This document shows, in pieces, positions 4,890 to 57,286 of a stretch of 64,000 nt of DNA. Source of the DNA: an uncultured Thermotogaceae bacterium (GTDB taxonomy: Bacteria; Thermotogota; Thermotogae; MWEM01); NCBI GenBank assembly GCA_964604305.1, contig CAZRYM010000005.1, forward strand, positions 7,217-71,216, in the 5' to 3' direction. How positions within the stretch are numbered: the first letter of the stretch is position 1; every line of letters begins with the position of its first letter. The notes beneath the pieces are model-generated. The model was not told the origin of the DNA, did not search any database, and worked only from the letters and a program-made list of their open reading frames with translations. Position numbers and translations under genes: made by a program.

Positions 4890-6977
4890 ATGAGGAAGAT
4901 ACAATTTATATTTGGCGTTCATAATCATCAACCTGAAGGGAATTTTGATTTTGTTTTCCAGAAATCCTTGGAAAAAGGGTATAAGCCTTTTTTGGAAACG
5001 GTTTTTGAATATCCCCAGATTAAAACAACACTGCATTTTAGTGGATCTCTGCTTCAATTCATAGAAAAAAAGGACCCCAAGTTAATCGACTTGATAAAAA
5101 AAATGCTTGACAGAGATCAGATCGAATTGTTCTCAGGTGGTTATTATGATCCCATATTATCTGTGATTCCTGAGGAAGATCGGTTACTTCAGATCAAGAT
5201 GATGAACGAGAAACTGAAAGAGTTGTTTGATTACAAGGCAAAGGGCTTTTGGCTTTCTGAAAGAGTTTGGGAACCATCCATGGTATCAACGCTTTCAAAA
5301 CATGATGTAGAATACATTGCCCTGGATGACGATCACTTTAAAAATGCCGGTAATTACGAAGATGAACTCAATGGATATTTTCTGACTGAGGACCAGGGTT
5401 ATCCCTTGAAGATATTCCCAATAAACAAAAAGCTCAGATATCTTATACCTTTTCATGATATTGACGAAACAATCAATTTCTTACACGAAAGGGCATCAGA
5501 AAGTGCTCAAAGCATGTATCTAATGATGGATGATGGTGAGAAATTCGGTATTTGGCCGGGTACTCATGAGCTGGTTTTCAAAAAAGGTTGGCTTGAAGGC
5601 TTTTTTAAAAGACTCATTGAAGAGTCGGAATGGTTAACTTTAACAACTTTTGGAGAGTATGCAAAGGAAGTTCCACCACGTGGGAGAACGTATATTCCCG
5701 ATTCCTCTTATCCTGAGATGATGAGCTGGGCACTTCCCAGTAGAGCCAGAACACATTATGAGAGATTGGAAAATGAACTAAAGGAAAAAGGGGATTTCGA
5801 AAGATTTTCAATGTTTCTCAAGACTGGTTTCTGGAGGACTTTTTTGTCCAAATATACTGAATCTAATCTGATGCACAAAAAGATGCTTCACATCAGATCA
5901 AAAATCACCGGGGAAATGCCTGATAATATTAAAGAAAAGATACTGAAAAGTCAATCTAATGACGCTTATTGGCATGGCCTTTTTGGTGGATTGTATCTTC
6001 CTAATTTAAGAGCGGAAGTCTATAAAAATCTTATAAGCGCAAATAGGAGCATAGATGAAATCAAACATTCGGGTGAGGATGATTTTGTTGAAATTGAGGT
6101 AAAAGATTATGATATTGACGGATATGAGGAGATCATCATCAACAACAAAAGACTCACGATCGGAATTTCTCCGGCGAATGGCGGGAGAATATTCGAACTT
6201 TCTTTAAAAAATAAAGAAATTAACCTGATGAACAATCTTACCAGAAGATATGAACCTTATCATGAAAAGATGGAAGAAGCGAAAACGAAGGAGGAAGGCG
6301 GATACGGCAACCATTTGACAAAGGAAAAAGGCTTGGAAAAGCTCCTGAATTATGATTGGTATGAACGTTTTTCCTTCCTGGATCATTTCCTTGGAGAATG
6401 GAGTAATTTGGAAAAATACGCCCGATGCCGTTATCCGGAACAAGGTGACTTTACCAATCAGGATTATGCCTTTGAGATAATGGATAAGGAAACAGGTTCA
6501 ATCAAGTTGACAAGAGAAGGGCACATCTGGCATGGATCTCTTTGGGTTCCCATAAAACTGGAAAAACACATCAAACTTGATGATGATGGCATACTGCTAA
6601 AAAACGTAATTACAAATATGTCCACCCACAATATTCCAATCTTCTACGGATGTGAATACAACATCAACATGATTTCTGACAGTTCAATGGATCGTTTTCT
6701 ATACGCCGGTGAATATCCCAAAATCGGGATCTCGGAAACAGGAAAGGTTAAGGCAACCTATTTTGGCTTAAGAAGTGAATTTGAAGGTATAGACATTAAC
6801 TTACAACCTGACAGAGAAGTAGAATTTTGGTATTTTCCGGTTTATACGGTTTCCTATTCGGAAAGAGGGTACGAAAAACTCTATCAAACTACGAGTATAA
6901 CCCCTATTTATAAATTTAAGTCGGAACCCATGTCGACCTTTGAAACAGAAATGAAATTTAAAATAGAAGAATTTTAA
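4890..6977 (+). CDS. Glycoside hydrolase family 57 protein (alpha-amylase/4-alpha-glucanotransferase type)
   Basis: The N-terminus (FIFGVHNHQPEGNFDFVF...LHFSGSLLQFIE) is the GH57 signature. ATG 4890 is preferred because of the strong RBS GAGAGGTGA; the ORF track started at GTG 4881. Confidence 0.8.
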   Translation: MRKIQFIFGVHNHQPEGNFDFVFQKSLEKGYKPFLETVFEYPQIKTTLHFSGSLLQFIEKKDPKLIDLIKKMLDRDQIELFSGGYYDPILSVIPEEDRLLQIKMMNEKLKELFDYKAKGFWLSERVWEPSMVSTLSKHDVEYIALDDDHFKNAGNYEDELNGYFLTEDQGYPLKIFPINKKLRYLIPFHDIDETINFLHERASESAQSMYLMMDDGEKFGIWPGTHELVFKKGWLEGFFKRLIEESEWLTLTTFGEYAKEVPPRGRTYIPDSSYPEMMSWALPSRARTHYERLENELKEKGDFERFSMFLKTGFWRTFLSKYTESNLMHKKMLHIRSKITGEMPDNIKEKILKSQSNDAYWHGLFGGLYLPNLRAEVYKNLISANRSIDEIKHSGEDDFVEIEVKDYDIDGYEEIIINNKRLTIGISPANGGRIFELSLKNKEINLMNNLTRRYEPYHEKMEEAKTKEEGGYGNHLTKEKGLEKLLNYDWYERFSFLDHFLGEWSNLEKYARCRYPEQGDFTNQDYAFEIMDKETGSIKLTREGHIWHGSLWVPIKLEKHIKLDDDGILLKNVITNMSTHNIPIFYGCEYNINMISDSSMDRFLYAGEYPKIGISETGKVKATYFGLRSEFEGIDINLQPDREVEFWYFPVYTVSYSERGYEKLYQTTSITPIYKFKSEPMSTFETEMKFKIEEF

Positions 6978-7025
6978 AATAAATTTACGCAGCGTCTGAG
7001 AAATTGGACGAAAGGAGATGTAACA

Positions 7026-9188
7026 GTGGCATTTAAGCAATGGAAATTTGAAATAGCCGGCAGAGAGTTGGTTGTAGAACATGGAAAAATGGCAAAACAA
7101 TCAGCGGGATCTGTAGTTGTTAGATTGGGAGATACGGTCGTTTTGATAACGGCTAATTGTAAAAAATCAGCATCCGGAATGGACTTTTTTCCGTTAACCG
7201 TTGAGTTTCAGGAAAAGTTTTATTCATCCGGGAAGATACCCGGGGGATTTTTAAAAAGAGAAGGAAGGCCGGGAGATACATCAATACTGGCTGCAAGGCA
7301 AATAGACAGACCCATTAGACCTCTGTTTCCAGAAGGTTTTTATAACGAGGTTCAGTTGATTGCAACGGTATTATCAATAGATGAGGATAATCCGGCGGAT
7401 GTTCTTGGTATTCTTGGAGCCTCACTTGCGTTAAACCTTTCAAATATACCATTTGAAGGAATAGTAGCAGGGGTGAAAGTTGGTTATGTAGACGGTCAGC
7501 CGGTTGTTTTCCCAACAGAAGAAGAGTTGAGGAAAAGTGATATTGAGTTGACTGTAGCCGGTTCAAAAGAGGCTATTGTAATGGTAGAAGGTGAAGCCAA
7601 AGAAGTGGAAGAGGAACGGATGCTTGAAGGTCTGGACAAAGCTCATGAGGCAATCAAACAGATGTGCGAATTCCAGGAAAAAATATTAGAAGAGGTGGGG
7701 CCTTTTGAGAAGATGGAGTTTGAAGTATTAGCTCTATCAGATGAGGAGAAAGGCAGCCTGGAATCTTTGGTTGATAAAGCTGAACTGAAAACCAGAATGC
7801 TAACTACCGGGAAGAAAAATGCTGAGAAGGCACTTGGAGAATACAAAGAACAAATTCTTGAACAATTTGTCGAAAGTCTTGAAGAAGAAGCGGACTCTGT
7901 TAAACTTAGACTTGTTTCCGAGCATTATGAAGAGATTCTAAAGGGAATTATGAGAAGATCAATCGTAGAAGACAAAAAGCGTTCCGATGGCCGCGATCCC
8001 AGAACCATCAGACCCATTACATGTGAAACCGGTATTTTACCCAGGGCACATGGTTCTGCTCTTTTTACAAGGGGAGAAACTCAAAGTTTGGGAATCCTCA
8101 CACTTGGAAGTGGTCGGGATGTTCAGTACATCGATTCAATTTATGAGGAATCGGAGAAGAATTTCATGTTGCATTACAATTTCCCGCCGTTTTCCGTCGG
8201 TGAGGTTAAAAGAATGTTTGGCACCTCTCGAAGAGAAATAGGACACGGCCATCTTGCAGAGCGTTCTGTAAAATCGATCATGCCTTCTGTAGAAGATTTT
8301 CCCTATACCGTTCGGGTAGTATCCGAAATACTTGAATCAAACGGATCATCATCAATGGCAACAATATGTTCAGCATCACTTTCATTGATGGATGCGGGGG
8401 TTCCTGTGAAGAAACACGTTGCCGGAATAGCCATGGGTATGATAAAAGAGCCTGATGATACGGTCATTCTTTCGGACATACTTGGAATAGAAGATCACCT
8501 TGGTGATATGGACTTTAAAGTTGCCGGGACTAAAGAAGGTATAACAGGATTTCAGATGGATGTAAAAGTCAGCGGAATAAGCAGGGACATCATGGCACAA
8601 GCATTGAATCAGGCCAAAGAGGGAAGACTGCACATATTGGACATCATGTACAACACCATTGAACAGTCCAGGGAGAAGCTTTCTGAATATGCTCCTGTGG
8701 CTATCTCTTTCGATATTCCGGAAGAATCTATCGGAGAAGTTATCGGACCCGGAGGAAAGACTATCAAGTTCATCACCGCTGAATTCGATGTTAAGGTAGA
8801 GATTGACGATGAAAAAGGAAAGGTTAATATCTACGGAGATGATGCCAAAAAGAGTAACGCAGCCGCTGAATACATACACAGAATGCTGGAACCCCTTGTG
8901 CCTGACAAGGAATACACCGGAAAGATAACCCGTATCGAAAAATATGGGGTATTTGTGGAATTGGCACCCGGTAAAACAGGCCTTCTCCACGTTTCAAACA
9001 TGGAAGGCTATGTGAAAGATCCAGCAGCAAAGTTTAACCTTGGAGATGAAGTAAAGGTTGTCTGCGGTAAACTTGAACAGGGTGGAAAGATTGATTTGAG
9101 AGAACCCGGCAGTAAAAAGAAAAGTACCGGCAACAACGACAGAAGGGGTGGCAGAAAACCACCTGAAAGAAGAGAAAACAGGAAGTGA
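7026..9188 (+). CDS. pnp: Polynucleotide phosphorylase
   Basis: 720 aa with two RNase PH domains, KH and a C-terminal S1 (GKITRIEKYGVFVEL). GTG start with RBS AAAGGAGA. Confidence 0.95.
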   Translation: MAFKQWKFEIAGRELVVEHGKMAKQSAGSVVVRLGDTVVLITANCKKSASGMDFFPLTVEFQEKFYSSGKIPGGFLKREGRPGDTSILAARQIDRPIRPLFPEGFYNEVQLIATVLSIDEDNPADVLGILGASLALNLSNIPFEGIVAGVKVGYVDGQPVVFPTEEELRKSDIELTVAGSKEAIVMVEGEAKEVEEERMLEGLDKAHEAIKQMCEFQEKILEEVGPFEKMEFEVLALSDEEKGSLESLVDKAELKTRMLTTGKKNAEKALGEYKEQILEQFVESLEEEADSVKLRLVSEHYEEILKGIMRRSIVEDKKRSDGRDPRTIRPITCETGILPRAHGSALFTRGETQSLGILTLGSGRDVQYIDSIYEESEKNFMLHYNFPPFSVGEVKRMFGTSRREIGHGHLAERSVKSIMPSVEDFPYTVRVVSEILESNGSSSMATICSASLSLMDAGVPVKKHVAGIAMGMIKEPDDTVILSDILGIEDHLGDMDFKVAGTKEGITGFQMDVKVSGISRDIMAQALNQAKEGRLHILDIMYNTIEQSREKLSEYAPVAISFDIPEESIGEVIGPGGKTIKFITAEFDVKVEIDDEKGKVNIYGDDAKKSNAAAEYIHRMLEPLVPDKEYTGKITRIEKYGVFVELAPGKTGLLHVSNMEGYVKDPAAKFNLGDEVKVVCGKLEQGGKIDLREPGSKKKSTGNNDRRGGRKPPERRENRK

Positions 9189-9192
9189 TTTA

Positions 9193-10470
9193 GTGGATTC
9201 AGCCATAGCAACAACTTCGAAACTTAATAACGGAATGGAAATATTTTCACATAAAATGAACGGAGTAAGATCCGTAAGTCTTTCGATTGCGGTAAAGGCG
9301 GGTTCTTCAAATGAACCTGCCGGAAGCTCCGGTGCTGCTCATTTTACAGAGCATATGGTTTTCAAAGGAACCAGGACCCGCTCTCCAATAGAATTAAAAG
9401 AGCCTATTGAAAGAGTTGGTGGAACGCTCAATGCTTTTACCGGTAAGGAAAATACCGTTTACTTTGCAAGGGTACCAGATTCAAAATCAAGGATAGCTCT
9501 GTCAATATTAAAGGATATATGCAGTGAGTCATTATTTCCACAGAAATTTTTTGACCTTGAAAAGCAGGTTGTTATCGAGGAAATTTCAGCTGCAGATGAT
9601 GATCCCGCTGATATTGTTTATGAACAATTTTTCAAAAATGTATGGGGAAAATGCAACTACGGGAATCCCGTTTTAGGTACACTTGACAGTATACAAGACA
9701 TTAACAGGCAAGATCTTCTTGATTTTTACAGAACCAAATATAATCCTTCCAATATGGTTTTTTCAGTAGCCGGAAATTTCCCGGTGGAACTTTTGGAAAG
9801 TTTTAATGACTTGGCCTATACTCAATCGGAAAGAGAAGTATCTTCTTTAATATACTCACCTGAACGTTCGATAACGGTTACTGAAAAGGAAGATCTAAAA
9901 CAGCTTCACATGTTGATTGGTATCGAAGCACCTTCAAGACAGGATCCGGATTTTAACGTTTTTCAAGTCTTGAATACACTTTTGGGTGGAGGAATGAGTT
10001 CAAAACTTTTCAATCGACTCCGGGAAGAATTAGGTTTGGTATACACAATAGATTCGGGATTAATAAGCTATCCGGAGGGAGGGCTTTTTTTCATTTACGC
10101 AGCAACGACACCTGAAAGGTTTTTAAAGCTCAAAGATGAACTGATGAAAGAACTTTTAAAGATCGTGAAAAACGGAATGAATGAACAGGATATCAATTAC
10201 GGAAAAGAAAGGTTGAAAGGAAAACTTCTTCTTTCAACGGAAAGCACCTATTCCACAATGATGAGAAACCTTGATACCGGCCTTGCCTTTGGTAGACCGC
10301 TGAGTGTAGAGGAAATGGTGGAAAGGATTAATGCAGTGGATATTTCCCGGATGGATAAGGTTATGGAAAAATACTTTTCACGAAAATGGATACTGAGTCT
10401 GGTGACTCCAAAAAAGATCCTGAAACAATCGTTAATCGATAACTGGGAGGAGAAGGGGATAACGATTTGA
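9193..10470 (+). CDS. M16 family zinc peptidase (insulinase-like; YmxG/MlpA-type), encoded directly after pnp
   Basis: Inverted zinc motif HFTEHMVFKGT (HxxEH). GTG 9193 is preferred (RBS AGGAAG 8 nt upstream) because ATG 9148 would overlap the pnp 3' end by 41 bp. The pnp-M16 peptidase order matches Bacillus pnp-ymxG. Confidence 0.8.
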   Translation: MDSAIATTSKLNNGMEIFSHKMNGVRSVSLSIAVKAGSSNEPAGSSGAAHFTEHMVFKGTRTRSPIELKEPIERVGGTLNAFTGKENTVYFARVPDSKSRIALSILKDICSESLFPQKFFDLEKQVVIEEISAADDDPADIVYEQFFKNVWGKCNYGNPVLGTLDSIQDINRQDLLDFYRTKYNPSNMVFSVAGNFPVELLESFNDLAYTQSEREVSSLIYSPERSITVTEKEDLKQLHMLIGIEAPSRQDPDFNVFQVLNTLLGGGMSSKLFNRLREELGLVYTIDSGLISYPEGGLFFIYAATTPERFLKLKDELMKELLKIVKNGMNEQDINYGKERLKGKLLLSTESTYSTMMRNLDTGLAFGRPLSVEEMVERINAVDISRMDKVMEKYFSRKWILSLVTPKKILKQSLIDNWEEKGITI

Positions 10471-11597
10471 AAATAATCTGGAAGCGAACAGAGGATTTAA
10501 AGGCAGGCGAAATATGTGGCGATGATGTATTCGATCCCAACAGCTTTGTTTTGCTTGCTCATAAATCCAGTATTCTGGATTCAAAAACAATCAAATATCT
10601 TCAGAGAAGGGAAGTAGAGTGGGTTCCAGTAAGAATCCAAGATGGCGGAGAAAAAGAAGAAAACATCATACTGGAGCTTGAGGACGAATATTCCAAAGAA
10701 GCCAAAGCCATTCTCTCACCAGAACTCCCCTTAATCGTTTCTGATGAAAAATACCATGAATCCATTGCCCGCTTTGAAACCGTTACGAAAACTTTTCTAA
10801 AAACAAACTCCTTTCAAAAAGAAGAAGTTGTTAATCTTAGTAATGAATTGGTGAATGAAGTGCTTAAGAGTAATTCCAGCGTTTTTAATTTCATGACGGA
10901 CATCGCCCCGGGGTTTATCATCAAACATGGAATTAACACTGCAATTCTTGCTTGTGTTCTTGGAAAGGCTTTAAATAAGTCAAGGCATGTCCTATTTAAA
11001 TTAACTAAGGTTGCTTTATTACATGATATCGGCTTAATTTACGCCGGGAAAGAAAAATCCCTGGATTATGTTGAAGATATATTTCAACAATACAAACACG
11101 GCGCATTGAACAGGGTAAAGATACATCCTGTTATTGGGGTGAAAATCATCAATAAAGTAGCCCCTGGATTTCTGGAGAAAGATGAAGAAGACGCCCTGAT
11201 CGAACATCATGAACGTTATGATGGCAATGGCTTTCCCATGGGGGCAAAGGGTGAAAAAATTAACGAAATATCTCGTTTGATGGCCATTCCCGATGCTTAC
11301 GATACCTTGATTACAAAGGTGGGAGGGAAATCCACTATGGATCCATATACCGCATTGAAATGGATAGTATCCAATTCAGGAATATTGTTCGACCCAACTT
11401 TTGTGAAGACCTTTGTCCAATTGACCGGTATTTACCCTACCGGAACCCATGTCAGATTAAGTAACGGAACCAGGGGAACAGTTATATCAAAAGGAGGGAA
11501 GGCGATAGGGCGTCCGATTTTACTGGTTGAAGATGAAGAAATCTCTTTAAGCGATAAAACAGATTTATTCATTACCGAGGTGCTTGGTGTTGATTAA
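10467..11597 (+). CDS. HD-GYP domain protein (putative c-di-GMP phosphodiesterase) with N-terminal ~90 aa domain; GYP motif variant GFP
   Basis: LLHDIGLIY (HD) and HHERYDGNGFPMG (HD-GYP signature with Y->F). The TTG start overlaps the stop of the upstream peptidase gene. Confidence 0.8.
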   Translation: MKIIWKRTEDLKAGEICGDDVFDPNSFVLLAHKSSILDSKTIKYLQRREVEWVPVRIQDGGEKEENIILELEDEYSKEAKAILSPELPLIVSDEKYHESIARFETVTKTFLKTNSFQKEEVVNLSNELVNEVLKSNSSVFNFMTDIAPGFIIKHGINTAILACVLGKALNKSRHVLFKLTKVALLHDIGLIYAGKEKSLDYVEDIFQQYKHGALNRVKIHPVIGVKIINKVAPGFLEKDEEDALIEHHERYDGNGFPMGAKGEKINEISRLMAIPDAYDTLITKVGGKSTMDPYTALKWIVSNSGILFDPTFVKTFVQLTGIYPTGTHVRLSNGTRGTVISKGGKAIGRPILLVEDEEISLSDKTDLFITEVLGVD

Positions 11598-12666
11598 ATG
11601 GAAGCAGGTCAATACATTAAGAGACGGGGATATTTGTTCCGAAACGATTATGGGAAACAACCATGATGATGTTGTCATAGAAAATGGGGAAAAGATTACT
11701 TTTAAAACAATTCAGAAGCTTCATAACAGAGGTATAGACTGGATTTCTGTTTATGAAGAAGATGAAAATGATACTCCCCTCAACGATCTCTTTACAGAAG
11801 AAAAACTCGAAAAATTTTCATCCGAATTATCTCAGGTTTGTGAAGAGACTTTGAGAGAGGGAAGAATAAATATCGGAAAGACCAAGCAGATCAGTGACGA
11901 GATTAACAAAGAAATTATTGAAGAATATGGGGAATACGTAGTCCCTTCTCTGGTAAAGTTAAAGAATATGGATGATTATACCTTTACCCACCAAGTAAAT
12001 GTTGCTATCATTTCCACTATACTTGCTACTGAGAAATATGGTAAAAAAAAGGAAATCATAGAAAAATTCACCATGGGTGGTTTATTGCACGATATGGGGA
12101 AATTGTGGATTCCCGGTGAAATACTGCAAAGTAATGAACGTTTAAAATCCTTTGAATATGATATTATCAAAAAACATCCGGAATACGGGCATAAGATCGC
12201 TTTGTTGTCTGGGGTGGATAATGAATCGATATTGAACGCTATTAAGTGTCATCACGAGAGATGGGATGGAAAGGGTTATTTGGAGGGTTTAAACGGTCTA
12301 AATATCCCTTTAGAGGGTAGGCTTTTAATGGTTGCTGATGTATTTGACGCCTTAACAACTAAACGCCCTTACAAAGATGCATGGGAGCCTTATGAAGCAG
12401 TTAGTTTTATCGTAAAGCAATCCAAGAAGATGTTCGATCCTGAAATTGTCCGACTATTTTTAATAGCGTTTGGACTTTATCCCATTAACACGAAAGTGAT
12501 TTTGACCACAGAAGAACTGGCAATAGTGGTAGGTAACAAAAGGGGTTCTATAACCAGACCCATTGTAAAAGTAATTAGGAATGATCAGGAAATAGAGATT
12601 GATTTATCAAAAGAAGAGAAAGTTAGTATTAAAAAGGTCATAAAAATAAGAATGCTGAACAATTAA
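11584..12666 (+). CDS. HD-GYP domain protein, tandem paralogue; GYP motif variant GYL
   Basis: LLHDMGKLWIP and HHERWDGKGYLEG. The N-terminal (W..V..L.DG-IC...) and C-terminal segments are collinear with the upstream paralogue. It overlaps the previous gene by 14 bp. Confidence 0.8.
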   Translation: MVLIKWKQVNTLRDGDICSETIMGNNHDDVVIENGEKITFKTIQKLHNRGIDWISVYEEDENDTPLNDLFTEEKLEKFSSELSQVCEETLREGRINIGKTKQISDEINKEIIEEYGEYVVPSLVKLKNMDDYTFTHQVNVAIISTILATEKYGKKKEIIEKFTMGGLLHDMGKLWIPGEILQSNERLKSFEYDIIKKHPEYGHKIALLSGVDNESILNAIKCHHERWDGKGYLEGLNGLNIPLEGRLLMVADVFDALTTKRPYKDAWEPYEAVSFIVKQSKKMFDPEIVRLFLIAFGLYPINTKVILTTEELAIVVGNKRGSITRPIVKVIRNDQEIEIDLSKEEKVSIKKVIKIRMLNN

Positions 12667-12674
12667 TAACCGGG

Positions 12675-13937
12675 GTGATCGCTATTTTTCCCGATATGAA
12701 TTCTCAGGAACTTGTACCTGGCCTTTTTTTACCCGATTATTCTAAAAGGTCGATCGTGAATCTGTCAAATTTTATCTTAAAATTCTTTAGCTGTTCTACT
12801 CCATATCCTCCCTTGGAAATAATGGATAAAATCAGATTTCCCGAAAAGAAAAAAAAGGTCGTGTTGTTTGTAATCGATGCCATTGGAAGGGATAATCTTC
12901 AAATGGCTGCTGAACAATCTGCATCATTAAAGAATGACTTACTCATATATGAAAAGGAAGTATTAACGAGTGTTTTTCCATCAACTACTACCGCAGCCCT
13001 CACCTCTTACAGCACTGCTCTTCCTCCGTTGGAACACGGTATGTTGGGGTATACACTGTTTCTATCTGATTATTCCTCTCTTGTAAACATGATTTTGTTA
13101 ACTCCTCCGGAATTTGAAAGGGATTCGCTGATCCAATGTGGACTAAACCCTATGAAATTCTTAACAACACCGACGATTTTTGAAATCCTTCAAGAAAAGG
13201 GTGTCAAATGCTGGACAATTACCTCAGACTTGTTTGTGGAGTCAGGTTTAACAAAAATGCATCATAAAGGTTCTGCAAAGCGATCCTATGCAGGTATGTT
13301 GGAAATGTTTTATCAACTGTTAAAAACAATTGAAGAAGAGGATTCCAAGACATTTATCTTTATGTACTGGGGTTTGACCGATACCCATGGTCATCATTAT
13401 GGAACAAATTCAAGGCCTTATCAGGGAGGAATTGAGTATCTTTTCAGAATGCTTCGACAGGAAGTTATTGATAGAATGAATAAACAGCAGATTGATGAAA
13501 CCCTGTTCCTTGTCAGCTCAGACCACGGACAAATCGATACAACCTGGCAGGATGAGGAATGGATAACCTCAGAAGACGAACTTTTTGAACACTACATTCA
13601 TCCGCCTATGTCCGGTGAGCCTCGAGCTGTTTATTTCAACGTTAAAGACCCGGATGGTTTTACAAACTATTTCAACAGACGTTTCTCAAAGCGATTTCAT
13701 CTGATTGAAAAAAAACATGCCATAGAGAGCAATCTTTTTTCCAACACCGCTTTACCAATCAGTGTTCAGGAGAGAGGGTTTAAGGAGAATCATTCACGTA
13801 TTGGAGACTTCATAGCCATTGCTAAAAACAGGTATTCCCTGCATTTTAAGCATCATGGCAAATCGTATACCTTAAAGGGTAAACATGGTTCATTGACATC
13901 AGAGGAACTGCTGGTACCTCTGTTAATATATTCATAG
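12675..13937 (+). CDS. Alkaline-phosphatase-superfamily protein, type I phosphodiesterase/nucleotide pyrophosphatase (NPP)-like
   Basis: VVLFVIDAIGRDNL (metal-ligand Asp region), SSDHGQ, and HGSLTSEELLVPL at the C-terminus are typical of the NPP/AP core. The exact start (GTG 12675 vs ATG 12696) is uncertain. Confidence 0.6.
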   Translation: MIAIFPDMNSQELVPGLFLPDYSKRSIVNLSNFILKFFSCSTPYPPLEIMDKIRFPEKKKKVVLFVIDAIGRDNLQMAAEQSASLKNDLLIYEKEVLTSVFPSTTTAALTSYSTALPPLEHGMLGYTLFLSDYSSLVNMILLTPPEFERDSLIQCGLNPMKFLTTPTIFEILQEKGVKCWTITSDLFVESGLTKMHHKGSAKRSYAGMLEMFYQLLKTIEEEDSKTFIFMYWGLTDTHGHHYGTNSRPYQGGIEYLFRMLRQEVIDRMNKQQIDETLFLVSSDHGQIDTTWQDEEWITSEDELFEHYIHPPMSGEPRAVYFNVKDPDGFTNYFNRRFSKRFHLIEKKHAIESNLFSNTALPISVQERGFKENHSRIGDFIAIAKNRYSLHFKHHGKSYTLKGKHGSLTSEELLVPLLIYS

Positions 13938-13981
13938 ATTCAATCAGTTACAATTTTTGTCGCAGCAAAGGATATGATAGC

Positions 13982-14785
13982 ATGTCATCAAAAATTTGTG
14001 TTGTTTTACTAAAGGATTTTGCGCTGTTAGGGAGGAAAGGAGAGCTTCTTGAAATTGAAAGTGATTATGCCAGATCATACCTCCTTCCGAAGGGAATTGT
14101 AAAACAAATAACCGATAAAAATACCGTGATCAGGTTAAAAGAGAAAATAAAAGATCAAAAGAAAGAGAAACAGACTTCTTTGTCTGAGACATCGAAGGCT
14201 TTATTATATAAATATAACGATCCTTCTGCTGGCTCAGAAAGGCAATCCGTATTGGGGAAATTGCCCCCGATGAAATTCAGGGTACATTTCAAGAATTCTC
14301 ATACAGAGAAGATGAGTTGGGAATGGTATCCCGCTTACAAATTGAACAGGCTCCCGGCAGGTTACAGATTTGTTATTCTCACACACAAAGGGAGGCAATA
14401 CCTTGGAACATTTCATTATCTTCAACAATTGTTAATCAGAAGGGTGCACTCTCCCTTGATTATCGACGGATCGAATTTGGGCTGGGTAAAAGGGAAACCG
14501 GCGATGGATCCTATATTTGACCTTTATGAGTACATTGCAGATAAATCTGAAAAGTTTTTCTTTCCTTTCATCTGGGCATTTGACAAATCTTTTAAAAGGA
14601 AATTGCCAAAAACAGAAAGAAGGGAATTAACTGAATTTTGTGCATGGTCAGGGACAAAAGTGGTAGATTACGCAGATGAAGAGATTTTTAAATTAGCAAA
14701 ACGATATCACACAAAATATATTTTCTCTCAAGATCATTTTAAACAGTACCATACAGAGTATTATACAAGGATCACTTACAGATAA
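13982..14785 (+). CDS. Fusion protein: ribosomal protein L9 N-terminal domain + Regnase/Zc3h12a-like NYN ribonuclease domain
   Basis: aa 1-45 (MSSKICVVLLKDFALLGRKGELLEIESDYARSYLLPKGIV) matches the L9 N-domain (VILLKDVKGLGKKGE..EV.DGYARNFL.PKG). A K/E-rich helix follows. The C-terminal half has IIDGSNLGW and DYADEEIFKLAKRYHTKYIFSQDHF, which resemble Regnase-1 VIDGSNVAM and DDRFIVKLA...VSNDTYRDL. Confidence 0.6.
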   Translation: MSSKICVVLLKDFALLGRKGELLEIESDYARSYLLPKGIVKQITDKNTVIRLKEKIKDQKKEKQTSLSETSKALLYKYNDPSAGSERQSVLGKLPPMKFRVHFKNSHTEKMSWEWYPAYKLNRLPAGYRFVILTHKGRQYLGTFHYLQQLLIRRVHSPLIIDGSNLGWVKGKPAMDPIFDLYEYIADKSEKFFFPFIWAFDKSFKRKLPKTERRELTEFCAWSGTKVVDYADEEIFKLAKRYHTKYIFSQDHFKQYHTEYYTRITYR

Positions 14786-14805
14786 ACAAGTTGAGGGGTG
14801 TAAGA

Positions 14806-15975
14806 ATGGAACAGATAGAAGACTTAAAATTGGAAAATGAAACTTTAAAGAAAAGAATAGAGATTTTGGAAAGGGAGTTAACTGAACAGGATATTTTGAA
14901 GTTTCAGTGGGCCGGTAGTCTTGGAAGATGGGAATTGAATCTGAAGACAAAAAAGGTAAAATTCAATCCATTGAAAATCCAGACTTTGGGATACGAACCA
15001 GGAGAAATCGATCCGGATATGTATGGTTTTGTGAATATGATTCACAAAGACGATTACGATACCGCCATGCAGGCTATGAGAGAACATATTGCGGGAAAGG
15101 TTCCCGTTTACGAAACAGAATACAGGATAAAAACAAAGACAGGCGAATTTAAAACCTTTTATGACAGGGGGAAGATAATCAAAAAGGACGAAGCCGGACA
15201 TCCTGAATTGGTTGCAGGGATTGTTTTTGATATAACGGAGAGAAGGAAGATGGAAGAGAAGCTGAAAGAGACGGTTTCTCAACTGAAAAAGGAAAATGAG
15301 CTCACCAATCAAATCCTGTCTATTATTTCACATGATCTCAGGGGGACAATAGGTGCCATCTCTTCATTAATCGACCTTTTTCTAAACGAGGAATATCAGT
15401 TATCCTCCTCTGAAAAAGAACGTTTTCTTTATGACATCAATATATCTGCGAAGTCTTCATTGTCAATATTGGAAAATCTTCTGAATTGGTCAAGAAACGT
15501 AAAAGGAAGTATTAAAGCGGATTTTACCGCATTCAACCTGACTGAAGTTGTGAATGATATAGTGAGTTTTAACAGGAGTATTTTCAGTTCAAAAAACATT
15601 ACCATAACGAATAACATTAAAGAGAAGATCTACGTCAAAGGTGATAGCGATATGATTCATACCGTTGTTAGAAATCTGATCTCCAACGCCTTAAAATATA
15701 CCAAAAGAAACGGGGAAATTAGCATTGATCATACAAAAGATCACGAAAAATGTTTTTTGATTATCAAAGATAACGGAGTTGGAATGGATGAAAGTAGATT
15801 AAAGGAAATTAACAGGAACAAGGTAAAATCAAAAGAAGGAACTGAAGGAGAAACCGGAACGGGTCTGGGACTTTCACTTGTGAGAGAGTTTTTGGAGAAA
15901 AACAACGGGATTATGGAAATAGAAAGTAAAAAAGGGGTAGGTACTACAATTAAAATCGGGTTACCAGAAGCATAA
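14806..15975 (+). CDS. Cytoplasmic PAS-domain sensor histidine kinase (orphan, no adjacent response regulator)
   Basis: Coiled-coil N-terminus, PAS domain, H-box SHDLRGTIGAI, N box NLISNALKYT, G boxes DNGVGMD and GTGLGLSLV. No TM segments. ATG 14806 is preferred (RBS GAGGGGTG). Confidence 0.85.
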   Translation: MEQIEDLKLENETLKKRIEILERELTEQDILKFQWAGSLGRWELNLKTKKVKFNPLKIQTLGYEPGEIDPDMYGFVNMIHKDDYDTAMQAMREHIAGKVPVYETEYRIKTKTGEFKTFYDRGKIIKKDEAGHPELVAGIVFDITERRKMEEKLKETVSQLKKENELTNQILSIISHDLRGTIGAISSLIDLFLNEEYQLSSSEKERFLYDINISAKSSLSILENLLNWSRNVKGSIKADFTAFNLTEVVNDIVSFNRSIFSSKNITITNNIKEKIYVKGDSDMIHTVVRNLISNALKYTKRNGEISIDHTKDHEKCFLIIKDNGVGMDESRLKEINRNKVKSKEGTEGETGTGLGLSLVREFLEKNNGIMEIESKKGVGTTIKIGLPEA

Positions 15976-16429
15976 AAAAATAGGCACAGCAATTGAAGAC
16001 TTAAAAATTCACTGAAGAAAGCGTTAGAATAAGATGTTTTTTAAAAGTGTTAATGGAGTTTGAATAGAAAGTACACGCTGTACCTATTTATAAAAAAACT
16101 AAAAATCTCGAAATTACATATAATTTATTCATCAGATAAATCAATCGCGCAAACATAATAAAGCAATAATACCATACGATTCTGCTTGCTATTTCATTCA
16201 TTTTTTACTTTAATCATCTCGATAACTATACAACAAATAATTCGGTTTGTCAAGTATTATTTTTTAATTTTTATTGTCAGTTTGGTTTAATTTATCTCAG
16301 CCGATCTTCTTTAGACAAAATCAGCTTTCTCTCAAGCGCAGATTAAAGGGTAATTTAGCAACATAACAAAAATAATGGATTTAATAAAGGTAAAGAATTC
16401 AAAAGCCCTTTATCTACTTGTGTTCTTAA

Positions 16430-16459
16430 TTGTACAATTTTTTTATTTAGTAGTATAAT
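16430..16459 (+). promoter_or_regulatory. Sigma-A-type promoter upstream of MFS transporter gene
   Basis: TTGTAC, an 18-nt spacer, then TATAAT. It sits about 35 nt upstream of the RBS AAAAGGAG. Confidence 0.4.
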
Positions 16460-16494
16460 TCAACAAGTAAAACGAAAAAGGAGCGACCGATCCG

Positions 16495-17880
16495 GTGATA
16501 GAATCCGATATTAAAAAGGCATTAAAATTATCGCTGATTGAAGGTGCAGGAGCTTCAGTCTTCTTAATTTTAATTCAAGGATTTATCTTTACAAAAATAG
16601 CACTTGAATTTGGTGTTGATGAACTTTTATTGGGTTTTTTAATGGGGATTCAACTGTTGAGCCAAGTTTTTCAAATCTTCGTTCCAATGATCATCAATCG
16701 CCTTCAAAAGAGGAAACCTTTTGTGATATTCTTTATTGCGTTATCAAGAGCTTTTTGGCCGCTTTTGCTGATTATGTCACTTTTGGGGTGGGCTAATCAG
16801 GAAGTCTTTATCACCATTATTTCACTAAGTTTTATATTTGGTGCCTTTGCAGGAAATGCCTGGACCTCTTGGATGAGAGATCTTATTCCGGATAGCAAAA
16901 TGGGATCATTTTTTGGTCTTCGTAACCTCATCAACACGGTTGTCAGTTTGATATTTACTTGGATTTTTTCAAGAATTCTTGAAAATAACCCCGATATTCA
17001 CGGAGTAAGAATCGTCATCCTGATCGGTTTTATTTGTGCTATATGGAGTATCTTCTTTTTATCCAAACAGTATGATCCGCCATTAAAAGATTCAAAATCC
17101 GGTAATCTTTTTAAGTATATTGTTTCTGATAAAAACAATATACGATTAATGGTTTTTGGCGGATTCTGGAATTTTGCAGTCTTATTCACTGCTCCTTTTT
17201 TTTCTTATCATCAAATTCAGAATCTGAATATGAGTTTTTCGTTTTTGGGATATCTGTCCATCACATTCAGCGGCGTCATGATATTGTCGGTTATTTTATG
17301 GGGGAAACTTGCCGATAAAATCGGACACAAGAATATATTAAGAATTGGTGTTGCTTTGGCTTCAGTCGTATCAATCATGTGGTTTTTTATGGCACCACAA
17401 AATTTGCATGTATTAATGTGGGTTGATGCCTTTTTAGCTGGTACAGCCTGGTCTGCAATCAACCTGTCTATTTTTACTCTTCCTCTCATTATAGGAGGAA
17501 GGTCGGCAGCAGTGGTATACGGATTTTTTTCTGCTTTCAACGGTGTTTTTGGTTTTTTGGGCTCAGTATTAGGAGGAGTGGCGGCTAAATATTTATCAGG
17601 TTATTCTTTCACACTCTTTGAATTGGATATGAACGGCCTTCAAATCATGTTCCTCTTTGGCGGTATAATGCGGTTATTTTCGCTCTACTTTCTAAATAAG
17701 ATAAACGTTTCCGGACATATCAGACTACGTACTGTCTTAGGACAAAGGGTTGTTAATATAAACAGAAGATTATCAAGAGACTTTTTTGAACCTATGCCCA
17801 GGTATATGTATCTGAAATCATTAGAGGTAGTCTCCCCCAAAAAGGCATCCAGAATCAAAAAAGAAATTTCATTGTTATAA
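16495..17880 (+). CDS. Major facilitator superfamily transporter
   Basis: 461 aa with about 12 predicted hydrophobic TM segments. MFS-like loop RNLINT between TM2 and TM3. GTG start. Confidence 0.7.
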   Translation: MIESDIKKALKLSLIEGAGASVFLILIQGFIFTKIALEFGVDELLLGFLMGIQLLSQVFQIFVPMIINRLQKRKPFVIFFIALSRAFWPLLLIMSLLGWANQEVFITIISLSFIFGAFAGNAWTSWMRDLIPDSKMGSFFGLRNLINTVVSLIFTWIFSRILENNPDIHGVRIVILIGFICAIWSIFFLSKQYDPPLKDSKSGNLFKYIVSDKNNIRLMVFGGFWNFAVLFTAPFFSYHQIQNLNMSFSFLGYLSITFSGVMILSVILWGKLADKIGHKNILRIGVALASVVSIMWFFMAPQNLHVLMWVDAFLAGTAWSAINLSIFTLPLIIGGRSAAVVYGFFSAFNGVFGFLGSVLGGVAAKYLSGYSFTLFELDMNGLQIMFLFGGIMRLFSLYFLNKINVSGHIRLRTVLGQRVVNINRRLSRDFFEPMPRYMYLKSLEVVSPKKASRIKKEISLL

Positions 17881-18332: not shown

Positions 18333-20003
18333 TTAATATTCAGTTTTCTTTTTCTTTGACTTATACTCGTACATACGTGAATCAGCAATATGTATGATCT
18401 TCTCCAGATCATCAATACTCTTCTCTTCAAGAGTCGTGATTCCGTAACTGATTGATAGCTCCAATCCCTTTTGAAGCGTCTGCCCTTTTTCTTGAAGTAT
18501 AGAGTTGATTCTTTCCATAATTTTTTCGGATGTTTGTGCATCTGTTTTGATAAGGGCGATAACAAATTCATCTCCACCTATTCTGGAAATCAGATCTTCG
18601 GACCTTGTACAACTCAGAAGTGTTTCACCGAGTAGGTTTAAGGCCTTATCACCCATATTGTGACCGTATTGATCATTAATCTTTTTCAGATTATCCATGT
18701 CCACAAACACCAGAGTCCAGGGATAAATGTCTTTATCTATAATTTTTTTGATCTTTCTGAAAAATGTTCTTCTATTTTCCACTCCTGTCAGCTCATCATG
18801 TGAAGCAAGAACTTCCATACGGTCTTTGGCGATCTGTAAACTTTTATTTGCACTATTTTGATGGTTTATTAGAGAAGTGATTCGATGGGACATAATCTTA
18901 AAAGCATTTCCCAATTTTTCGGTTTCGCTGAAATCAGCATGTTTTTCCAGTTCCGATAATCCTAAGGAGGGATTCTTCTCATAATCATGTACCTTTTTAA
19001 TAATCATATTTAAGTTATTGACCAATTTTTTTACCTTTTGGTGATTAATTAGCACCATGATAATTAGAATGGAAGAGATGATGATGTTGAAAAGGGTTAG
19101 GAATGAATTTTTGATTTTTAAAAGTTGTGAAAAGTCTATTTCAAATTTGGTTCTTACAATGGGAGAAATTTCATTTGGGTTGAAATCTTCTTCATAAAGA
19201 CTGGTGTACACGATGTATAAGCCTTCTGAATTTTCTTTGAAAGCATAAAGTTGTTCGTTTTCAGCTTTTTTGAACATTCTTATATCATCTTTTGTCAATT
19301 CCGGGAAGTTTCCAAAAGGTTCATTCGAAACGGTATAAACAGCTATATTTTCCACATAGTCGTTGTTGTTTGCAAACAGTTGAAATTGATCGATAAATTT
19401 TTTTAAAATATCATCTTTCAACTTTAAGCCTATTTCGAAAAAATTGCCGTTGTTTAATCTATAATAACCAAAAATTCTGGGAATACCGGTTTTAACTTCA
19501 TAAAGCATCTTATCAATTTTGATTTTGTTTATTTGTAATTGATTTAAAAAAGTCCAGTATTTAGGGACTGTTTTCTGTAAATCAAGTCCAAGATCGTTTT
19601 CATAATTTGTCTTTTCTATAATGCCTTCGTTTGAGATCACATACCAGTTGACTTTTTCAACGGTATTATCCTGTGATAAATAGTGAGAATCAATTATTTG
19701 GCTGATTTGATCATCTGTAGCTTCTGGATTGTTTTCATACCAAGTGGCACTATCCTGAAGTATTTGATCCATCTTCTGTCTGTTAGTCTGTTGAAAACCT
19801 GTAATCATTTGATGCCAGTTTTCCTGATAAGAGATGACGCTTTCTACTATCGTGTTAAATATTGGATCAAAAATGTATTTTTTATAACCTTTATCGAAAA
19901 CAACATTGATGATGATAAGAAAGAATAATAAAGAGAATGCCAATGTAATGATTTGTGTTTTCAGTAAAGCGTAAATAAAACCACGTTTTTTCAAATTTCC
20001 CAC
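18333..20003 (-). CDS. Membrane-anchored diguanylate cyclase (TM - extracytoplasmic sensor domain - TM - GGDEF)
   Basis: Intact RIGGDEF with the I-site RSED five residues upstream. Other motifs: DELTGVENRR, DMDNLKKINDQYGH. Two TM helices flank a roughly 270-aa sensor domain. The start may be TTG 19994 (better RBS) rather than GTG 20003. Confidence 0.85.
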   Translation of the reverse strand: MGNLKKRGFIYALLKTQIITLAFSLLFFLIIINVVFDKGYKKYIFDPIFNTIVESVISYQENWHQMITGFQQTNRQKMDQILQDSATWYENNPEATDDQISQIIDSHYLSQDNTVEKVNWYVISNEGIIEKTNYENDLGLDLQKTVPKYWTFLNQLQINKIKIDKMLYEVKTGIPRIFGYYRLNNGNFFEIGLKLKDDILKKFIDQFQLFANNNDYVENIAVYTVSNEPFGNFPELTKDDIRMFKKAENEQLYAFKENSEGLYIVYTSLYEEDFNPNEISPIVRTKFEIDFSQLLKIKNSFLTLFNIIISSILIIMVLINHQKVKKLVNNLNMIIKKVHDYEKNPSLGLSELEKHADFSETEKLGNAFKIMSHRITSLINHQNSANKSLQIAKDRMEVLASHDELTGVENRRTFFRKIKKIIDKDIYPWTLVFVDMDNLKKINDQYGHNMGDKALNLLGETLLSCTRSEDLISRIGGDEFVIALIKTDAQTSEKIMERINSILQEKGQTLQKGLELSISYGITTLEEKSIDDLEKIIHIADSRMYEYKSKKKKTEY

Positions 20004-20087: not shown

Positions 20088-20342
20088 TTATACAGGACTT
20101 TTTCTCCTGAGATATTCTCTGACGGCATCATTTGTAAATTGCTGGATTGTTTTCTCTTCTATCTTTGCAAGTTCTTTTAAAACAGCCCAGTCTTTATCGT
20201 CTAAATCCAGCTTGATAATCCTAATCTTTCCCTTGGTCATTTCCTGGATCCATTGATTGATGTCTTTCAGATTATCTTTGATATTTTCATTGATAATGTT
20301 TTCGAAATCCTCTTCAAAATCATTATGATTTTTCTTCATCAT
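20088..20342 (-). CDS. Small ribbon-helix-helix-like protein (84 aa), last gene of DUF4097 operon
   Basis: The C-terminal half (KIRIIKLDLDDKDWAVLKELAKIEEKTIQQFTNDAVREYL) has a beta-alpha-alpha RHH pattern. It overlaps the upstream gene by 20 bp. Confidence 0.45.
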   Translation of the reverse strand: MMKKNHNDFEEDFENIINENIKDNLKDINQWIQEMTKGKIRIIKLDLDDKDWAVLKELAKIEEKTIQQFTNDAVREYLRRKSPV

Positions 20343-21513
20343 CTCTCACTTCCTGCTCACTGTTATTTGTGGTTTCTTCAGAGTTCTTTTTATTTTCCGG
20401 TATGACTTCTTCACGCATATCTTGAATCAGTTTTTCTGTTTGTTCCTCTGAATATTCCAAGATTTTTAGCATTTCCTTAGCTTCTTCCAGAGTAATAATA
20501 CCCTGTAAATAAGTATAAACAATTCTTTCAGCATCCGGATCGTGTTTAGATGTTTTCTCTTCAGTTGATTTTTCTTTTAATTGCTCAGGTGTAAATTCTT
20601 CGGTTTTGATAATCAGATCGCCAGAAACGGTTTTAGCGTTGATTTCTCCTCCTGTTCCTTCTCCAAAGGTAAACTCGTTTTTACCTTTGACTTTAGGCTG
20701 TCTCTTTTTGAAAAGTGGATCTCCGGAAACAGAAATAAAACTGACAGAAGCATCAACGGGTGTTGTGAGTATGTTGATGTCTCCACTAACCGTATTGGCA
20801 TTCCAAGAAATTTTTCGATTGACATTTTTTATCATGATATCCCCGCTGACCGTAATAATTTTTGATTCAGACGGGATGTTTCTGACGGCAATATCCCCGC
20901 TGACATTGTTGGCAGAAAGATACTGTGCGTTTTCAGAAATGGAGTCAATCTTAATGTCTCCCGATTTATCATTGCATGCTATCTGTGTTGCATCAATGTC
21001 GAAAGAAGAGATGTCTCCGCTTAATGATGAAAGGGTGCATTTATTTTCAACCTTGATCCCCTGTATTCTGATATCCCCTGATTTGGTGTTAATGGTCAGT
21101 TCATCACTAAAAGCAGCATCACATGTAATATCTCCCGATGTTGAGGAAAGTTTGATCTTTCCGCCTTTCAGTCCGTTTGCTTTTATTGATCCGGAAACGG
21201 TACTAATTGAAATTTTTTTAAGAATATCGACGGGTATTTTTAACTTGGCTTTGTATAGATTACCAACCGATGTGTTTATTGTTATTCCGAAAAATTTTAC
21301 AATATTGCTCTTATCGTCAAAACGGATAATGAGTTTTTTTTCATTTCTGACAACTTCAACATCACAGTTTTCCTTTTCCCAAATAACATCCCAAGATACT
21401 TCTGAAACTGGTTCTTCAACACCTTCTAATTCGAAATCTCCTCCAACAGTAGAGATGACGATTTCATCTATATCGGTAAGGCTTGTGTTGCCTTTTTTTT
21501 GATAGAATGACAT
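20323..21513 (-). CDS. DUF4097-like (LiaF C-domain/YvlB-like) putative adhesin/beta-helix repeat protein
   Basis: About 10 reiterations of [VTKL]SGDI spaced roughly 20-25 aa apart (VSGDI, TSGDI, KSGDIRIQ, LSGDIS, KSGDIKID, VSGDIAV, VSGDIMI, VSGDINI, VSGDPLF, VSGDLII). The start is set at ATG 21513 because of RBS GAAGGGGGA. Confidence 0.7.
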   Translation of the reverse strand: MSFYQKKGNTSLTDIDEIVISTVGGDFELEGVEEPVSEVSWDVIWEKENCDVEVVRNEKKLIIRFDDKSNIVKFFGITINTSVGNLYKAKLKIPVDILKKISISTVSGSIKANGLKGGKIKLSSTSGDITCDAAFSDELTINTKSGDIRIQGIKVENKCTLSSLSGDISSFDIDATQIACNDKSGDIKIDSISENAQYLSANNVSGDIAVRNIPSESKIITVSGDIMIKNVNRKISWNANTVSGDINILTTPVDASVSFISVSGDPLFKKRQPKVKGKNEFTFGEGTGGEINAKTVSGDLIIKTEEFTPEQLKEKSTEEKTSKHDPDAERIVYTYLQGIITLEEAKEMLKILEYSEEQTEKLIQDMREEVIPENKKNSEETTNNSEQEVRDDEEKS

Positions 21514-21526
21514 TTTTAATCCCCCT

Positions 21527-21736
21527 TCAAGCAATCAATGTTTTTATAAGCCATATGAAACCAGCCACGGCCAATATCACAATCAATATGGGTAAGAAGA
21601 TAACGAATATGCCTGCAAAAATCAAACCAACTAGAATGACAGCGCCTATTGCGACGAATATTCCGATAATCGCCGGGAATAACTTAAAACCCAAAAAGAT
21701 GAGGAAAATTGCCCCAAGAACTGATAGTATATTCAT
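21527..21736 (-). CDS. Small integral membrane protein (69 aa, 2 TM)
   Basis: Almost entirely hydrophobic (GAIFLIFLGF...ILAVAGFIWLI). Small-TM partners like this commonly accompany DUF4097 and DUF2089 genes. Confidence 0.55.
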   Translation of the reverse strand: MNILSVLGAIFLIFLGFKLFPAIIGIFVAIGAVILVGLIFAGIFVIFLPILIVILAVAGFIWLIKTLIA

Positions 21737-57197: not shown

Positions 57198-57286
57198 TGG
57201 CGGAGAGAGTGGGATTTGAACCCACGTAAGGGAAACCCTTAACACGCGCTCCAGGCGTGCGCCTTCGACCGCTCGGCCATCTCTCC
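57198..57286 (-). tRNA. tRNA-Ser (anticodon GGA), class II with long variable arm, encoded CCA
   Basis: Reverse complement: GGAGAGATGGCCGAGCGGTCGAAGGCGCACGCCTGGAGCGCGTGTTAAGGGTTTCCCTTACGTGGGTTCAAATCCCACTCTCTCCGCCA. It has a 7-bp acceptor stem, anticodon loop CTGGAGC, T-loop GGTTCAAATCC, and a 3' CCA. Confidence 0.85.

Follow-up and report, generated by a model that had tools for sequence, protein, structure and literature searches.

The subject of this analysis is a gene at positions 13982 to 14785 on the plus strand of a 64-kb stretch of DNA from an uncultured Thermotogaceae bacterium (contig CAZRYM010000005.1; the whole stretch of 64,000 nucleotides is referred to as the window in the following). 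According to the list of open reading frames (ORFs), the gene starts with an ATG at 13982, ends with a stop codon at 14783-14785 and encodes a protein of 267 amino acids. In this fusion protein, the N-terminal domain of the ribosomal protein bL9 and a connecting helix are followed by a linker motif, a small beta domain and a nuclease domain of the NYN (PIN-like) type. A fusion of an L9 N-domain with a Regnase-like domain had been proposed in an earlier note, made from the sequence alone, and this observation as a whole is confirmed, since every peptide quoted there is found in the ORF: KICVVLLKDF...LLPKGIV corresponds to residues 4-40, IIDGSNLGW to residues 160-168 and DYADEEIFKLAKRYHTKYIFSQDHF to residues 229-253. 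A Shine-Dalgarno-like AAAGGA (13967-13972, plus strand) can be read 9 nt upstream of the ATG. It is kept with a spacing of 9-10 nt in nearly all orthologous loci, and in most of them the whole block gcaaagga(a/t)ttgata precedes the ATG at an equal distance.

Residues 1-47 (13982-14122, plus strand) form a diverged bL9 N-terminal domain, the domain that binds 23S rRNA, as judged from Pfam and from the structural match. Ribosomal_L9_N (PF01281) matches residues 7-47 with E=1.5e-9 and 37.6 bits, compared to a gathering score of 20.7 bits. The same domain is found in 16 of 16 close members of the family (best E=7.7e-12), and more distant members score 23.7-36.4 bits. The domain had been called near-textbook, with a length of about 45 residues. 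It is real, but this description does not hold: with one and the same model, the canonical L9 of a sister genome reaches 84.5 bits, the fusion orthologue of that genome 45 bits and the window protein only 38-40 bits. Moreover, the near-universal G-Y-A-R-N motif of L9 is replaced by D-Y-A-[RHKN]-S in close members and by AHDY, ADEY or AEKY in distant ones. The core elements LLKDF, LG+KG and YA.SYL.P.GI are retained, and in a Foldseek comparison the N-domain superposes on ribosome-bound bL9 N-domains with a root-mean-square deviation of 0.8-1.0 Å over 36-45 residues (target template-modelling score, TM-score, 0.87). Profile and model together indicate that the N-domain is a genuine, yet diverged Ribosomal_L9_N.

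The AlphaFold2 model of the fusion protein (16-sequence alignment, mean predicted local distance difference test score, pLDDT, of 80.8) consists of the L9 N-domain, a helix at residues 46-74, a stretch of low confidence and two more folded units. The predicted helix (14117-14203, plus strand) is rich in lysine and glutamate and would be the equivalent of the strut helix of bL9. Its likeness to the L9 connecting helix, assumed beforehand from the sequence, is borne out by the PDB sequence matches of the N-terminal part, which are nearly all bL9 proteins and whose alignments enter the connecting helix, ending at query residues 61-86. The fusion protein therefore possesses both the fold of the bL9 N-domain and the long connecting helix. 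It is not a complete L9: the full-length model TIGR00158 fails (35.7 bits compared to a cutoff of 58.6), with only positions 3-62 of its 148 positions aligned, and Pfam detects the L9 C-domain PF03948 in no member of the family, whereas the canonical L9 of the sister genome (P0281) scores 79.8 bits for it.

The C-terminal part of the protein, residues 144-267 (14411-14782, plus strand), is assigned by profile and fold to the Zc3h12a/KHNYN clade of NYN (PIN-like) endoribonucleases. In the predicted model it adopts a three-layer alpha/beta/alpha fold typical of PIN domains, with the Regnase/ZC3H12 group as best fold match and Utp24, Utp23 and VapC20 also among the PIN fold matches. With Pfam, the window protein alone does not match PF11977 (RNase_Zc3h12a, a family of the PRORP group of PIN-like nucleases; gathering score 23 bits) even at E-values up to 10, but five of 16 family members match weakly (best E=2e-4), and the gathering score is just reached by the distant fusion member P0017 (23.1 bits) and by a standalone relative, P0028 (23.3 bits). 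Since the window protein is unmatched and few of its relatives come near the threshold, the sequence comparisons indicate that the nuclease is a divergent member of RNase_Zc3h12a that is not captured by the current PF11977 model. A profile of residues 85-267, compared to 177,635 PDB sequences, matched only ZC3H12B and ZC3H12C, and these weakly. The wider nuclease profile, built from the fusion family and its standalone relatives, matched ZC3H12C (7.8e-8), ZC3H12B (2e-7), ZC3H12A/Regnase-1 (1.6e-6) and KHNYN (1e-5), the next families being far weaker (VapC6 0.17, PRORP2 0.33). Thus the prediction of a Regnase/NYN domain containing IIDGSNLGW in place of the L9 C-domain proved right in kind, although the domain is larger than the approximately 110 amino acids originally assigned to it. 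PF05991 (NYN_YacP, the family of Rae1) does not match the fusion protein. There is also no CCCH zinc finger after the NYN domain: the protein stops at residue 267 and no cysteine-rich motif is present.

Exactly four acidic residues, D162, D201, D232 and D251, are invariant down to 24-31% identity, as are N165 and S249, so that these four aspartates are retained in the orthologues. D162-G-S-N165 (14465-14476) is the first catalytic motif and aligns with D141...N144 of Regnase-1 and with DGSN of ZC3H12B/C. It is invariant in the fusion family, and the standalone relatives, too, keep its D, G and N without exception. The second acid of the tetrad, D201 (14582-14584), lies at the end of the second strand ('WAFD') and is invariant in both groups. 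Within D229-Y-A-D232 (14666-14677), corresponding to 'CYDD' of ZC3H12B/C, D232 aligns with D226 of Regnase-1 and is invariant across the wider family, whereas D229 is invariant in fusion members only. S249-Q-D251-H252 (14726-14737) aligns with S242-N-D244 of Regnase-1, with S249 and D251 invariant in the wider family; all four motifs lie on the plus strand. In the hidden Markov model alignments, and with the catalytic residue numbers of Regnase-1 taken from PMC5499597, the equivalent positions are D141 and D162, N144 and N165, D226 and D232, S242 and S249, and D244 and D251. Two positions differ: D225 is replaced by A231 (with D229 nearby), and D248 by Q255, a position where most relatives have E or D. 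The alignments therefore describe an acidic tetrad that is compatible with PIN chemistry, but not identical to the site of Regnase-1. In a Nei-Gojobori analysis of ten orthologues, the NYN module has a ratio of nonsynonymous to synonymous substitution rates (dN/dS) of about 0.03 and the whole gene one of about 0.07; the values for the L9_N, linker and beta segments are about 0.16-0.17 (beta mini-domain about 0.16). dS is close to saturation, which makes these values rough. Because of the invariant acidic set and the low dN/dS of the NYN module, the domain is likely an active metal-dependent nuclease.

In the layout assumed initially, the helix led directly into the nuclease. This missed two conserved elements in between. 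The first is a linear motif, LSExSKALLYxYNDP (residues 66-81, 14177-14224, plus strand), recognized by its conservation across the family at the end of the helix: L75 is invariant, and S68, Y76, N79 and P81 are conserved in at least 90% of the members. The linker of low confidence comprises residues 75-97, and the pLDDT falls below 50 at residues 69-75 and 84-92. The second element is an orphan beta mini-domain of about 45 amino acids (residues 98-143, 14273-14410, plus strand), for which AlphaFold2 predicts four strands (98-103, 108-115, 130-135 and 138-143). It contains the invariant residues W113, W115, Y116, P117, L121, L124 and P125, and is missing from the standalone NYN relatives, which have a helical N-terminal region instead. 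A profile of mini-domain and linker gave no significant match in PDB or Pfam. RecO_N, an oligonucleotide-binding (OB) fold, was matched by a single member with a weak E-value of 7e-4, and this match is not trusted. A 701-aa protein, P0029, was likewise rejected as a homolog, since its approximately ten near-identical 60-aa repeats, which weakly match residues 106-144, look like a spurious translation of tandem-repeat DNA.

The fusion is not the product of an assembly error or a frameshift, because 15 clusters (at 90% identity) and 11 independently assembled species-level genomes show the full-length architecture. More than 15 independent assemblies contain the uninterrupted ORF, and GC content and GC content at third codon positions (GC3) of the gene equal those of the adjoining genes. 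The 15 full-length homologs, found in a collection of 5.8 billion proteins clustered at 90% identity, share 53-99% identity and are 255-303 aa long. Among 1.84 billion representatives at 50% identity there are about six fusion clusters, including three distant members at 38-42% identity. In 185,579 species-representative genomes, 11 fusion loci were detected by a scan with DNA patterns, which the most divergent members would escape; all of them are labelled as metagenome-assembled genomes of Thermotogota, Thermotogae or Thermotogaceae. The family is therefore rare, and every named source belongs to the Thermotogota. Across the 11 loci the identity declines from 81 to 44% for the fusion protein and from 91 to 64% for PNPase. 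Since the divergence of the fusion thus tracks that of its neighbors in 11 of 11 conserved loci, this indicates vertical inheritance of the gene.

Outside the fusion family, the standalone relative P0028 carries a helical N-terminal region before its NYN domain. In L022 (3753-4601) and L023 (3627-4475) its gene is flanked by an amidase gene and queA, each of which overlaps it by 4 nt, and thrS is adjacent, which is a tRNA- and translation-flavored neighborhood for the wider bacterial Zc3h12a-like clade.

The search for a canonical rplI elsewhere in the genome was successful in one sister genome. The chromosome-level assembly OY763325.1 (3.98 Mb, uncultured Thermotogae bacterium; contig ctg97506c of ERZ21831104) holds the fusion orthologue P0013 at about 1.40 Mb and the canonical rplI product P0281 at about 3.85 Mb. 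The latter, retrieved by a homolog search with a Thermosipho-like L9 (P0103), has 149 aa and contains both L9_N and L9_C. In this genome, the fusion is an extra bL9 paralog and not the sole L9 of the cell. The window contains none of rplI, rpsF and rpsR, and they are also missing from the 10 kb around every fusion locus. P0279 and P0280, considered as canonical L9 proteins of the close clade of the window, were set aside because they come from other samples and contexts. Compared to the N-domain of the fusion, the resident canonical L9 ranks only at about 260 of 281, and the scores against diverse L9 proteins are flat; judged from these comparisons, the L9 duplication may therefore be ancient.

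In the sister genome (L016, 8001-11489, corresponding to OY763325.1 at about 3.85 Mb), the canonical rplI overlaps the end of dxr and is followed by a gene for a Lactamase_B_2 protein of the metallo-beta-lactamase fold (with a match to the Anti-Pycsar protein Apyc1) and then by the gene for RNase R. Other Thermotogota-like L9 genes stand in the order EF-G-like, rplI, radical-SAM, CN-hydrolase. A different protein of 267 aa, P0076, combines a canonical-looking L9_N (71.3 bits) and a helix with a WCX domain (PF25583, 25.5 bits compared to a gathering score of 23.9) and has no L9_C; its sequence suggests repeated reuse of the L9 anchor.

Upstream of the fusion gene, Pfam identifies on the plus strand pnp (7026-9188), an M16 peptidase gene (9148-10470), two tandem genes for HD_5 (HD-GYP-type, PF13487) phosphohydrolases (10467-11597 and 11584-12666), conserved in 11 of 11 loci, and a gene for an NPP-type phosphodiesterase (PF01663, 12675-13937), which is separated from the fusion gene by 44 nt. 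The order pnp-M16-HD_5-HD_5-NPP-fusion is found in 11 of 11 genomes. The NPP gene is the most constant neighbor, lying directly upstream in all 11 loci and also in the distant member P0017, and an HD_5 gene occurs near the distant members P0017 and P0018, both of which share a downstream amidohydrolase-M50-HD_5 block. The genes of the string are co-directional and overlap or are separated by gaps of at most 44 nt. A promoter and terminator scan of positions 6800-16600 detected neither a convincing plus-strand promoter directly upstream nor any terminator between the genes of the string, which is consistent with co-transcription but weak evidence for it. The constancy of the NPP and HD phosphohydrolase neighbors suggests co-expression with enzymes that metabolize nucleotides or RNA ends. 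Downstream follows a PAS_3-HATPase_c histidine kinase gene (14791-15975, plus strand, Pfam). HD-GYP, NPP and histidine kinase genes had been named as operon partners of the fusion, and all of them are present in the window. However, the kinase is not a conserved neighbor, as it lies 3' of the fusion gene in the closest subclade only (loci L003-L009, not L001, L011, L012, L013, L014 and L015).

Some further observations concern these neighbors. The histidine kinase gene is listed with a TTG start at 14791, but the ATG at 14807, 21 nt past the stop codon of the fusion gene and preceded by GAGGGG (14793-14798), looks like its real start as judged from the sequence, with GAGGGG as the likely ribosome-binding site. 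The two tandem HD_5 paralogs have an N-terminal region of about 130-150 aa in common that is not covered by Pfam at E-values of 1e-5 or better, and their signatures HHERYDGNGFP and HHERWDGKGYL are not strictly 'GYP'. The fusion lineage that has diverged most, P0018, contains a 159-aa ORF without Pfam match (L020, 8734-9213; L021, 5786-6265) that shares about 55 nt with the 3' end of the fusion gene; this ORF could be a gene-calling error or encode a partner restricted to the lineage. A short way downstream of the operon, the minus strand carries the genes for a GGDEF diguanylate cyclase (18333-20003) and a DUF4097 'toastrack' protein (20323-21534). A DUF4097 gene is also found near the canonical rplI of the sister genome, which is probably a coincidence. 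There is also an RNase E/G gene near the fusion locus. The sole Rfam match at gathering level in the 64-kb window is a tRNA (57201-57286, minus strand); Rfam reported no riboswitch, leader or rRNA in the window and nothing near the fusion gene.

Starting from a conserved architecture with an intact acidic tetrad and from the coexistence with rplI in one genome, we favor the interpretation that the fusion protein is a ribosome-tethered endoribonuclease, and consider the chances of this to be about even. According to this interpretation, a lineage-specific bL9 paralog would have kept the rRNA anchor and the rigid helix and would have exchanged its C-domain for the linker motif, the beta domain and the NYN nuclease, the latter using the metal-dependent chemistry of PIN-like enzymes. 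On part of the 50S subunits, the protein might occupy the L1-stalk base where bL9 binds, exchanging or competing with the canonical bL9. The L9 helix and the flexible linker of about 20 residues would then form a swinging arm that brings the nuclease over the area upstream of the mRNA exit and to the trailing 30S subunit. In disomes of E. coli, the bL9 of the leading ribosome takes a stretched form, and the normal bL9 C-domain docks on the trailing 30S subunit at h5/h15 of the 16S rRNA. Since the bL9 arm reaches the trailing ribosome in disomes, the nuclease could be located at the trailing edge and at the collision interface. Because the arm would place it there or on the trailing 30S subunit, ribosome-associated RNA would be the likeliest substrate. 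In the version we prefer, the cut would fall in mRNA, either between ribosomes that have collided or at a stalled ribosome's trailing edge, and would yield truncated mRNA for trans-translation; cleavage of rRNA or of the E-site tRNA would be alternatives. A bolder form of this idea, a built-in collision nuclease, is no more than tentative and on the whole unlikely: a subset of ribosomes would carry the fusion protein in place of bL9, its arm would dock mini-domain and NYN domain at the disome interface, and after the cut in the inter-ribosomal mRNA the trailing ribosomes would be handed over to tmRNA.

Some of the findings described above weigh against a ribosome-tethered, active nuclease, namely the divergence of the L9_N domain with the loss of its GYARN motif, the two of five Regnase-1 aspartate positions that are not aspartate, and the score of the window protein alone, which lies below the PF11977 threshold. 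The first of these leads to the alternative that deserves most attention, although we still consider it improbable: a nuclease for the decay or processing of free RNA off the ribosome, in which L9_N would be a generic module for structured RNA that guides the NYN domain to mRNAs or small RNAs (sRNAs), alongside PNPase, RNase E/G and the phosphodiesterases. It is in line with this that bL9 can bind a non-ribosomal mRNA leader, exsA (PMC10931766), that the L9 fold is structurally related to RNase HI's N-terminal domain (PMC1564403; compare the hybrid-binding domain of RNase H1), and that other NYN enzymes take their specificity from appended CCCH, KH or PPR domains (PMC5499597). The match is nevertheless specific to Ribosomal_L9_N, with no Cauli_VI/RNase H1 hybrid-binding-domain model being reported, and the L9-specific helix is kept, which is sensible for a strut on the ribosome but less so for a simple RNA-binding tag. 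The gene string includes pnp, and the RNase E/G gene nearby would also suit free RNA as substrate, but pnp and M16 are a widespread housekeeping pair, so that this proximity is weak evidence. The other two findings would be expected of a catalytically dead or purely structural L9 variant, or of an annotation or assembly artifact. This can hardly be maintained in view of the four acids, N165 and S249 being invariant over 24-100% identity, of the NYN dN/dS and of the many assemblies with an intact ORF.

The anchor itself would serve equally well for a nuclease directed at rRNA, which docks at the bL9 site of pre-50S particles or of idle or damaged ribosomes and cuts 23S or 16S rRNA, either for a lineage-specific maturation or for degradation under stress or starvation. 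The fold matches include three PIN nucleases, namely Utp24 and Utp23, which work on pre-ribosomes, and VapC20, which cleaves 23S rRNA; PNPase is encoded next to the fusion in its gene string, RNase R near the canonical rplI of the sister genome, and the nearby HD-GYP-type, GGDEF and histidine kinase genes suggest control by stress signals in the close clade. The kinase is, however, not conserved as a neighbor, the long arm suits a reach beyond the own subunit, and with one tRNA as its only Rfam match the window offers no rRNA operon to inspect. We therefore regard an rRNA nuclease as rather unlikely. A toxin or anti-phage abortive-infection effector, which once triggered would cut ribosome-bound RNA and stop translation, seems very unlikely to us. 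PIN and NYN nucleases are common among toxins (VapC) and among effectors associated with CRISPR, high toxicity would be expected of an RNase tethered to the ribosome, and the family is narrow and patchy. But PADLOC reports nothing for the fusion protein or the NPP and HD genes, there is neither an antitoxin-like partner nor a small partner ORF, and mobile-element genes were not seen nearby. The composition of the gene is native, and it occupies a fixed chromosomal locus amid housekeeping genes in 11 of 11 species, with a divergence that tracks PNPase.

The ribosome-tethered endoribonuclease that we favor resembles several known systems, each in one aspect. With bL9 (rplI; PF01281 and PF03948) the fusion protein shares the N-domain, by hidden Markov model and fold, and the long connecting helix, and from sequence and model it plausibly also shares the anchor site at the L1-stalk base and the geometry of the arm. 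It differs from bL9 in that the C-domain is replaced by mini-domain and nuclease, the N-domain scores half of the canonical value and GYARN is gone. Regnase-1/ZC3H12A-D, KHNYN and N4BP1 (PF11977) possess a homologous nuclease with the DGSN, (D)D and SxD motifs and also gain their specificity from an appended targeting domain. In contrast to the fusion protein, these enzymes are eukaryotic, carry CCCH or KH domains and have free mRNAs or viral RNA as their targets, whereas the targeting module here is a domain of a ribosomal protein and no zinc finger is present; at the positions of D225 and D248 of Regnase-1 the fusion has A and Q. Rae1/YacP (PF05991) of Bacillus subtilis belongs to another NYN subfamily and is a free factor recruited to ribosomes with demonstrated activity, in contrast to the fusion protein, whose activity we infer. 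It has been reported that Rae1 cuts about 12 nt upstream of the stalled codon, a position like that of SmrB, and feeds trans-translation (PMC12407103; PMC13622287). The Rae1 preprint raises the possibility of 'another nuclease' for phyla without SmrB, Rae1 and HrpA; Thermotogota are not mentioned in its text. By analogy, the proposed logic of a nuclease at the interface of collided ribosomes that cuts the mRNA between them would be that of SmrB in E. coli and of Cue2/NONU-1 in eukaryotes. However, those proteins have an SMR fold, are soluble and recognize the disome interface, while the fusion protein would be pre-installed via its bL9 anchor.

The closest parallel in design is artificial. The engineered L9-EF-G and L9-EF4 chimeras (PDB 4wpo and 4w2e), which are among the sequence matches to the N-terminal part of the fusion protein, also join the L9 N-domain and helix to a foreign payload, and they bind ribosomes. 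These chimeras of the crystallographers show, by analogy, that the L9 anchor and helix tolerate large payloads. They contain no nuclease and demonstrate only that the ribosome can physically accommodate a design of this kind. A natural counterpart appears to be undescribed. The earlier note knew of no characterized bacterial protein with this architecture, and our literature search for L9-NYN fusions found none either. A census of the PIN superfamily (Matelska et al. 2017, PMC5499597) lists bacterial members of PF11977 with 'unknown function in bacteria' and does not mention a fusion to a ribosomal protein. It is the combination of a NYN domain with a ribosomal-protein anchor that appears to be new, since both domain families and the principle of appended modules were already known.

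These results are relevant to the field of ribosome quality control and rest on in silico evidence from uncultured organisms. The natural chimera provides a testable hypothesis for collision-coupled mRNA cleavage in a phylum outside the SmrB and Rae1 paradigms, and it would offer a naturally occurring template for targeting enzymes to a defined ribosomal position. If the fusion protein is indeed a collision nuclease, bacteria would have arrived at a solution independently for a third time, SmrB and Rae1 being the other two, and for the first time by turning a ribosomal protein itself into a quality-control nuclease. Even if rRNA or free RNA should turn out to be its substrate, the bacterial Zc3h12a-like clade would thereby receive its first assigned function.

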